DNA of 36,900 nt from Candidatus Eiseniibacteriota bacterium (GCA_034440375.1 JAWXBZ010000016.1:1-36900); one strand, 5' to 3'. Shown: positions 18,726 through 18,797, counted from the stretch's first letter. Notes: generated from the sequence alone by a model not told the origin. Program-made: numbers and translations.

Positions 18726-18797
18726 TTACCAGCCGGCTTTACCCGGCAGCACGCTGAGCGTAACGCTCAGCACCAGAGCGAGCCATCCCCATTTCAT
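18726..18797 (-). CDS. Small hydrophobic peptide, 23 aa: MKWGWLALVLSVTLSVLPGKAGW (below the ORF-track cutoff)
   Basis: ATG at 18797 preceded by SD-like GGAAAGGTGGG; TAA at 18728-18726; basic N-terminus, uninterrupted hydrophobic core, GKAGW end; lies in an otherwise unexplained 270-bp gap of a tightly packed region. Confidence 0.75.
   Translation of the reverse strand: MKWGWLALVLSVTLSVLPGKAGW

Follow-up and report, generated by a model that had tools for sequence, protein, structure and literature searches.

Several bacterial membrane proteins are paired with small regulators (MgrB and SafA with PhoQ, AcrZ with AcrB, MgtS with MgtA) that are shorter than 50 residues, hydrophobic, and devoid of an enzymatic domain. 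Regulators of the MgrB type are encoded beside, or co-regulated with, a membrane signaling protein, and gene callers miss them. Could a peptide of this kind serve MASE9, a widespread membrane sensor domain found in proteins of the HD-GYP, GGDEF-EAL, and kinase types? Those who defined MASE9 argue from sequence that it binds its ligand within the membrane and, so far as their report indicates, a single member has been studied experimentally (Galperin and Chou, bioRxiv 10.1101/2021.11.05.467447). Here we describe a short open reading frame (sORF) of 23 codons that resembles the MgrB-type regulators in each of these respects and lies just ahead of the gene for a predicted MASE9-bearing cyclic di-GMP (c-di-GMP) phosphodiesterase. 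It is found in a stretch of 36,900 nucleotides (nt) from a Candidatus Eiseniibacteriota bacterium (GCA_034440375.1, JAWXBZ010000016.1:1-36900), the whole of which we call the window. The sORF is a conserved gene of a newly described peptide family, and the five-residue tail of its product recurs on exported lipoproteins; we propose that the peptide may act in trans on MASE9.

The sORF occupies positions 18726-18797 on the minus strand, with its ATG at 18797-18795 and its TAA at 18728-18726, and the sequence quoted in the original prediction, which had been made from the DNA alone, is found there letter for letter. Its 23-residue product, MKWGWLALVLSVTLSVLPGKAGW, ends in the conserved tail G-K-A-G-W. 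A Shine-Dalgarno (SD) region, GGAAAGGTGGGTTC, lies at 18803-18816 (minus strand) within the palindrome GTGGGTTCCCAC; on the same strand GGAAAGGTGGG, at 18816-18806, stands 8 nt ahead of the ATG, and the SD of the window is of the weaker AAGGTGGG form. Downstream, the HD-GYP gene (17282-18643, minus strand) begins 82 nt beyond the sORF on the same strand, and upstream lies an unannotated gene for a 248-residue protein, up248 (18914-19660, minus strand).

How widely is this arrangement conserved? Our first locus set comprised the 30 best HD-GYP orthologue loci from the organism's own genome and 40 relatives, of which the nearest has an HD-GYP protein 55% identical to that of the window. Upstream of the HD-GYP gene, 22 of the 30 loci have a short ORF whose product bears the tail G-[KR]-[AS]-G-W and a 23rd has one with the variant SRGHW; seven have none, although one of these (L012) offers merely 96 nt of upstream sequence. 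(L, C, and G numbers are our handles for loci, contigs, and genomes.) Among loci reached via up248, all 30 carry the sORF, 14 of the genomes repeating the first set and 16 being new. Six of 20 loci selected in more distant families have the sORF, three of them with variant tails (DGRNGW, YRAGWGPGGP, and GGQSNWW); in 12 of the 20, purM follows up248 directly without an sORF, one further stretch has no up248 match, and one runs into a contig end. In total, 45 genomes have the sORF in the same place between the same two genes, at 59-386 nt from the HD-GYP gene among relatives.

Selection acts on the encoded peptide. The ratio of nonsynonymous to synonymous differences (pN/pS; Nei-Gojobori counts over 22 non-independent pairs) is 0.24 in the sORF frame, vs. 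0.79 and 8.5 in the other two, and differences are distributed over the three codon positions as 81:15:159. The original prediction had named a dN/dS-type comparison across orthologous loci and conservation of the terminal Trp as checks; the first indicates purifying selection, and TGG ends the tail in 23 of 23 orthologues. The four residues ahead of this invariant TGG use all their synonymous codons in the orthologue alignment. Three variants inside the sORF were seen in other sequencing runs, two of them synonymous and the third, T13A, introducing the residue that the nearest relative has. All three Trp residues to which attention had been drawn are present, but only the last is conserved, W3 and W5 recurring solely in that nearest relative (L002). 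GGAG or GAGG is found at -18 to -4 in 18 of the 23 orthologues, with starts of our own choosing. A six-frame translation of the 3.96-Mb genome (64% G+C) contains 115 occurrences of the loose tail-plus-stop motif, of which two are preceded by a strongly hydrophobic 10-mer (score >2.5): the sORF and a paralogue on contig C50. The sORF is a real gene rather than a product of chance, and its conservation argues for this more strongly than the motif count does.

What kind of peptide does it encode? The absence of a mature protein behind it was correctly predicted, the tail amounting to 4-5 residues, and in this respect the product differs from a Sec-type signal peptide. The signal-peptide layout that had been read into it, with a Lys-bearing n-region and a Pro-Gly break, does not survive comparison: an n-region Lys is found in L001 and L002 alone, and the break is not conserved. 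Nor do we find a single-pass membrane protein, for which about 18 or more uncharged hydrophobic residues would be expected. An uncharged run of at least 18 residues occurs in none of 23 orthologues, the longest in the window peptide being 15; many orthologues are only 16-21 residues long with two or three acidic residues, and several of those with two or three acidic residues have uncharged runs of 3-6. These acidic orthologues are therefore best described as short amphipathic helices. For the peptides as a group a single pass through the membrane is unlikely, and a short helix docked in or at a membrane protein is the better fit. What follows the Trp differs among relatives (GWM, GWI, GWF, GWGG). 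Two sORFs carry the tail in triplicate: one of 41 codons in genome G019 (L013/L042), with ...GGHAWW-AN-GGHAWW-MS-GGHAWW, and one of 45 codons in genome G080 (L075), with ...DGKGGW-DLQPT-DGKGGW-DRT-DGKAGW.

The peptide lies outside the catalogued protein families. With E values up to 10, eight of the peptides gave no match in NCBIfam and just two chance-level matches in Pfam-A (E 0.17-0.2). A scan for one form of the tail in one genome per species (185,579 species of bacteria and archaea) returned at least 120 stretches. Among the matches listed, 14 belong to the family; 12 of these are titled Candidatus Eisenbacteria, and the other two are contigs of two genomes of the phylum. The latter records (L138 and L139, contigs G173:C185 and G172:C139) are titled Candidatus Omnitrophota and Candidatus Limnocylindrales, titles that look mislabeled. 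The scan also met loci in many Mesorhizobium genomes (L133, L135, L145, L146, and others) in which a conserved open frame of 68-142 codons ends in ...CSLILLFPGGKAGW-stop, a hydrophobic run with the same tail. We found nothing in the literature on these tails or on MASE9-paired peptides, supplementary small-ORF lists being outside the scope of that search.

The sORF is set in a folded RNA unit of about 206 nt that includes the 3' region of the upstream gene, and the helices of this unit covary. In 23 of 23 units the order of elements is the same: the end of up248, a 5' arm, two AGCGAAGCG boxes, an anti-SD stretch, the SD, the sORF, and a 3' arm. The two arms form a long closing helix, P1. In the window, its 5' arm (GACCGGCATCG ... 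CGAGGGA; 18888-18908, minus strand) lies directly past the up248 stop, and its 3' arm (TTCCCTCG-A-CGATGTCGGTC; 18703-18722, minus strand) begins 3 nt past the sORF stop. The consensus sequences are GGCCGACATC for the 5' arm, as which the last up248 codons (..E-Y-E-L-R-P-T-S) double in relatives, and GATGTCGGYC, 2-50 nt past the stop, for the 3' arm. The minimum-free-energy fold of 18636-18945 pairs the two arms (z -2.4). P1 was named by us and then scored on MAFFT alignment A1, where 74% of cells are paired; sliding the partner gives 47.5% or less. Of the 17 pairs, 13 have changes on both sides, and the observed covariation score exceeded that of every shuffle. RNAalifold predicted no pairs on this alignment, which is too gappy, and a stem scan replaced RNAduplex, which over-extended on long flanks. 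Sense-strand G-U pairs outnumber A-C pairs 24 to 13, a modest excess that does not in itself prove the RNA strand.

The two boxes (18878-18886 and 18855-18863, minus strand), with invariant or near-invariant columns, lie 13-20 nt apart in 23 loci, and the pair occurs once in the genome. Each contains GCGAAGC, a sequence that can form a mini-hairpin. The anti-SD, GAACCCATC (18847-18855, minus strand), is complementary to GGTGGGTTC of the SD region; this duplex is predicted at -19.4 kcal/mol in the window, vs. -12.0 +/- 2.7 when shuffled, and at a mean of -13.8 kcal/mol over 23 loci, vs. -10.4 for shuffled partners. The SD-to-start spacers of six loci (L004, L010, L011, L013, L017, and L021) covary with the anti-SD. 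Two contigs (162 and 165 nt) from one metatranscriptome run (X20) lie wholly inside 18745-18955 and cover the unit from codons 1-17 of the sORF through the SD, the boxes, and the 5' arm to the last 40 nt of up248; they record presence in an RNA library and say nothing of strand, ends, or expression level. Contigs of that run leave the HD-GYP gene and most of up248 uncovered, a circumstance from which we draw nothing. A search of Rfam 15 with both strands of 18400-19200 (E up to 10) gave five matches, all far below gathering scores. The locus may hold a new cis-regulatory RNA unit composed of the closing helix, the twin AGCGAAGCG boxes, and the anti-SD.

Does the peptide also occur apart from this RNA? 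The original prediction had suggested looking for paralogous peptides in the same genome, and one was found on contig C50 (L031, 329-403; product MHRLVLVGLTAIALISGLGGKAGW). This gene has a strong SD, a sigma-54-type promoter (TGGCAT-N5-CTGCT) 77 nt upstream, and a 10-base-pair terminator with T7 35 nt past its stop, and it adjoins a gene for a GAF/sigma-54 activator; in genome G012, a similar peptide gene follows such an activator gene. Matches to GG-[KR]-A-G-W-stop are present in 71 of 206 genomes of the phylum, including 29 of 41 in one family, f9, to which five of the first-set loci without an sORF before the HD-GYP gene belong. All seven f9 loci examined contain a tandem pair of peptide genes, 19-28 codons in length, each encoding a hydrophobic run followed by two to six Gly and then KAGW, and in all seven a sigma-54-type promoter (TGGCAC/T-N5-CTGCT) lies 84-99 nt ahead of the first gene. 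In three of three f9 loci checked, the pair is situated between a sensor histidine kinase gene (with dCache_3 in two) and lon. For the window sORF no sigma-54 promoter was found, the nearest sequence being TGGCAT-tcaac-AAGTT without the -12 GC, and sORFs of the HD-GYP-linked type have no consistent one. What unites the peptide family is a short helix, hydrophobic or amphipathic, in many cases followed by a Gly run, with the tail [KR]-A/S-G-W at or beside the C-terminus.

The same tail forms the C-terminus of proteins of 175-420 residues, most of which have a lipoprotein signal, and is thus common to micropeptides and exported lipoproteins. These proteins end in ...L-x-H-F-S-x-Y-x(1-4)-G-G-[KR]-A-G-W. 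One is encoded in the organism's own genome (contig C108). A database search gave eleven relatives, none named or with a Pfam domain, and of ten whose sequences were examined, five extend about 15 residues past the Trp. An alignment of 17 sequences shows no variation at the H, F, S, Y, G, A, G, or W, with H-F-S in 17 of 17, and next to none at the K. An AlphaFold model shows a confident beta-sandwich at residues 78-200, for which the top Foldseek matches in the PDB are the ZU5 domains of ankyrin, UNC5b, and ZO-1 (E 1.7e-5, probability 1.00); GAIN domains of adhesion G protein-coupled receptors (GPCRs) match more weakly, and the Pfam ZU5 profile reaches its cut-off in one of seven lipoproteins (25 bits). 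By the modeled fold and an HFS-type motif at the domain end, they carry a ZU5 domain. HF|S is described as the autocleavage site after the ZU5 domains of PIDD and in Nup98 (in the account of PMC3210808), and bacterial surface proteins are among those for which ZU5 autopeptidase domains are reported (in that of PMC3482391); by analogy, these lipoproteins may cleave themselves at HF|S. In one genome (G043), the ZU5-tail gene is present in three copies with an identical C-terminal sequence on three contigs (L128, L129, and L082), which could be a repeated segment, with a weak MASE9-like gene downstream. In another (L120, G205:C14), a ZU5-tail gene after a MASE9-only gene has an open frame of just 56 codons ahead of the tail and is possibly frameshifted or broken.

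Tail-bearing genes adjoin MASE9 genes in two different arrangements. In the first, that of the window, the sORF precedes the gene for a 453-residue membrane protein that carries MASE9 (PF20972) at residues 82-219, with 39.3 bits against a cut-off of 24.3 and hence above the gathering score, and an HD_5 domain (E 3e-41). In the second, a stand-alone MASE9 gene lies directly ahead of a ZU5 lipoprotein gene in genomes G202, G040, G204, and G205, where the Pfam scores for MASE9 are 28.0, 28.3, 22.3, and 22.0 bits, respectively, against the same cut-off; the reading frames of the G202 pair have a 4-nt overlap. A weaker MASE9-like neighbor of the ZU5-tail gene, seen with tblastn only, is found in G043 and in G081, an unpublished genome that is among the 206 counted but on which none of our claims rests.

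We therefore asked what the tail is for. Since it is carried by stand-alone and tandem paralogues and by lipoproteins, the peptide itself is likely to be the product that matters, and the tail its recognition element. The reading that we favor, at a rough probability of 45%, is that the sORF is translated into a trans-acting micropeptide whose Trp tail is recognized by MASE9 in the HD-GYP enzyme encoded downstream. G-[KR]-A-G-W would be the recognition motif for this membrane-embedded sensor, the window peptide would be a co-encoded ligand or regulatory subunit of the enzyme, and its binding would tune c-di-GMP breakdown. Peptide synthesis may in turn be gated at the RNA level by the long closing helix, the two AGCGAAGCG boxes, and an anti-SD that would mask the ribosome-binding site. 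In this scheme the location of the peptide in the membrane, its binding to MASE9, a change in enzyme activity, and the trigger that opens the anti-SD are matters of inference.

Several observations weigh against this proposal. The pairing is not a fixed one: family f9 has a MASE9-HD-GYP orthologue without an adjacent sORF, and in genome G013 the order is up248-sORF-purM, with no HD-GYP gene adjacent and with a best match to the query protein that spans the HD domain alone. The sORF tracks up248 more tightly than it tracks the HD-GYP gene. ZU5 and MASE9 genes are adjacent in only 4 of 12 ZU5 loci, plus one weak case, and the four genomes belong to one family, so the arrangement possibly reflects a single event. 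No Trp-tailed small ORF lies beside the gene for the second MASE9 protein of the window, a MASE9-HisKA-HATPase histidine kinase (27640-29517, minus strand; 28.2 bits), or within 4 kb of the gene for a MASE9-only protein on contig C215. Stand-alone paralogues adjoin regulators without MASE9 (the GAF activator; the sensor kinase, with dCache_3 in two of three). The stretch past HFS is a beta-strand (192-197) in the ZU5 model, and part of the lipoprotein tail may therefore be structural. Finally, the RNA contigs come from one strandless library and could include DNA. A complex prediction for the MASE9 domain of L076 (residues 1-245, alignment A5) with its own 30-residue sORF peptide scored 0.00, a value that, obtained without controls, speaks neither for nor against binding.

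The strongest competitor, though an unlikely one in our estimation, is an exported and processed signal: the hydrophobic part would be a leader or anchor, the tail would be cut off after the Gly run (e.g., GG|KAGW), and the released tail would be sensed by MASE9, by neighboring kinases, or by another cell. Gly-Gly directly precedes [KR]AGW in many members, some relatives have the tail in triplicate (GGHAWW x3 in L013, DGK[GA]GW x3 in L075), cleavage at HF|S as in PIDD and Nup98 would free a 9-13-residue peptide with the same tail, and the peptide genes adjoin two-component or sigma-54 regulators. The window also encodes a CPBP/Rce1-like intramembrane protease (20652-21581, minus strand), upstream of the sORF with the pfkB and up248 genes between, and an Opp/Dpp-type double ATP-binding cassette ATPase with an oligo_HPY domain (29174-31033, minus strand), which the histidine kinase gene follows directly; bacterial CPBP/Rce1 relatives have been linked to peptide maturation and immunity. 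However, the loci examined show no linked exporter, C39 peptidase, or modifying enzyme, and many orthologues have no Gly-Gly (FFGRAGW, LLGKAGW, IFDGKSGW). Cleavage is itself a supposition. The organism, in whose window Lnt is encoded, is a diderm, and to our knowledge peptide pheromones are rare in diderm bacteria.

Could the peptide instead act in cis, on the ribosome that makes it? A ribosome pausing on G-[KR]-A-G-W-stop would block pairing of the P1 3' arm and hence formation of a terminator-like structure, so allowing read-through into the HD-GYP gene; the pause would be either nascent-chain arrest, as at SecM RAGP or in TnaC, or, in the manner of TrpL, a hungry Trp codon. In the window 3-12 nt separate the stop from the 3' arm, and in relatives 2-50 nt; the peptide is short enough for the exit tunnel, and its tail resembles both the RAGP of SecM and the ...KGWW... 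of Escherichia coli TrpL. A run of at least four T follows the arm in 9 of 23 relatives, so that the earlier remark that there is no U-tract terminator holds for the window but not for these. In the window itself no T tract is present past the arm, a terminator scan found no terminator-like site, and the GC hairpin CGGCGGCC-GATCCT-GGCCGCCG (18666-18687, minus strand) ahead of the HD-GYP start has no T tract after it. Tandem and stand-alone paralogues with their own terminator have no regulated gene directly behind them, and the tail on exported lipoproteins could not act on a leader ribosome. The residues past the Trp and the distance to the HD-GYP gene (59-386 nt) vary, and the N-terminal helix retains a hydrophobic or amphipathic character for which a tunnel sensor would have no use. 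These points leave the leader-peptide reading weakened, with rather long odds against it. A TrpL-type attenuator in particular is not what we see, with one conserved Trp codon, no terminator, and an HD-GYP gene downstream, and the doubt already cast on it by the original prediction was well placed: because the stand-alone paralogues have sigma-54-type promoters and terminators of their own and the tail is conserved at the amino-acid level beyond the Trp codon, a trans-acting regulator or signal fits better.

Less probable again is a type I toxin-like hydrophobic peptide in the style of Ibs or Hok, its mRNA silenced by 5'-3' pairing and the anti-SD. The peptides are very short and hydrophobic, some are tandemly duplicated, a strong SD is masked by the anti-SD, and a long-range helix joins the ends of the unit, as in the hok and aapA1 mRNAs. 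The syntenic place is fixed across the phylum, however, and mostly single copy, whereas type I toxins tend to be mobile and patchily distributed; many of the peptides are acidic amphipathic helices that do not span a membrane; and a specific tail shared with lipoproteins would not be expected of a pore-former. A chance ORF inside a conserved non-coding RNA element, to whose constraints some of the conservation could be due given the structured unit around it, can practically be dismissed, because 45 genomes have an open frame with a start, usually behind a strong SD, third-position changes dominate with a low pN/pS in the sORF frame alone, and paralogues retain the peptide without the surrounding RNA unit.

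The remaining probability falls to other partners, up248 among them. This protein has no Pfam match and is encoded, as a single copy, in 155 of the 206 phylum genomes but in 0 of 41 of family f9. Its AlphaFold model is confident (predicted local distance difference test score, 82), and its C-terminal half is similar to the amino-acid-binding regulatory domain found in LeuA and citramalate synthase, dsRBD- and S5-like matches being weaker; as a speculation, the twin boxes or the long helix could be binding sites for up248. The gap between the sORF and the HD-GYP gene also contains a second 23-codon ATG ORF (MSVTYSS...; 18640-18711, minus strand), whose TGA overlaps the HD-GYP ATG (ATGA); it is possibly a chance frame in GC-rich DNA.

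A broader and distinctly more doubtful proposal is that MASE9, an orphan membrane sensor, has G-[KR]-A-G-W as its cognate ligand motif and that Eisenbacteria deliver this motif in three ways. The first would be the co-encoded micropeptide of the window, with translation gated by a folded RNA; the second, stand-alone or tandem micropeptides induced through sigma-54; and the third, the C-terminal peptide that ZU5 lipoproteins encoded beside stand-alone MASE9 would free or expose on autocleavage at HF|S. The third way, if true, would be a bacterial counterpart of the adhesion-GPCR tethered agonist, wired to c-di-GMP turnover and histidine kinases. For MASE9, the window peptide is a concrete candidate input, and a tail defined to five residues makes the effect of the peptide on c-di-GMP hydrolysis directly testable. 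The tail on ZU5 lipoproteins beside MASE9 suggests a wider peptide-to-second-messenger scheme in an uncultured phylum, and the sORF adds a further case of a functional gene far below the length limits of gene callers.

How, then, does the locus compare with known systems? Relative to the MgrB type, the sORF peptides are shorter (16-26 residues), with a hydrophobic stretch below a normal membrane span; the family is defined by its C-terminal G-[KR]-A-G-W, the proposed target is a MASE9 c-di-GMP enzyme, and no sequence relation is apparent in Pfam or NCBIfam. Gram-positive hydrophobic pheromones such as SHP, which pairs with Rgg, and ComS, the source of XIP, are likewise encoded by unannotated ORFs of 17-35 codons beside regulator genes and have a hydrophobic body with an active C-terminus that often includes Trp. 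In contrast to these, no Rgg-type receptor, PptAB, or Eep is linked to the sORF, its host is a diderm, and its processing and export are putative. TnaC, SecM, and TrpL share with the sORF a length of about 14-24 codons or a terminal arrest motif, a structured leader before the regulated gene, and a conserved C-terminal motif near the stop; the sORF differs in that its tail is also found on stand-alone peptide genes and lipoproteins and that the window has no terminator. Type I toxin mRNAs (hok, aapA1, ibs) show the same masked SD, long-range closing helix, tiny hydrophobic product, and tandem copies, from which the sORF is set apart by phylum-wide synteny, acidic amphipathic members, and a specific tail motif.

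Tethered agonists that follow GAIN or ZU5 domains, namely the Stachel of adhesion GPCRs and the HF|S sites of PIDD and Nup98 (as treated in PMC3210808 and PMC3482391), offer a close parallel to the lipoproteins, which combine a ZU5 fold with an invariant HFS a few residues ahead of the tail. In four genomes, moreover, the gene for the tail lipoprotein directly follows one for a sensor domain that passes the membrane several times. They would depart from that model in that the proposed receptor, MASE9, is not a GPCR, that the lipoprotein cleavage is a presumed one, and that the window peptide is a free gene product.

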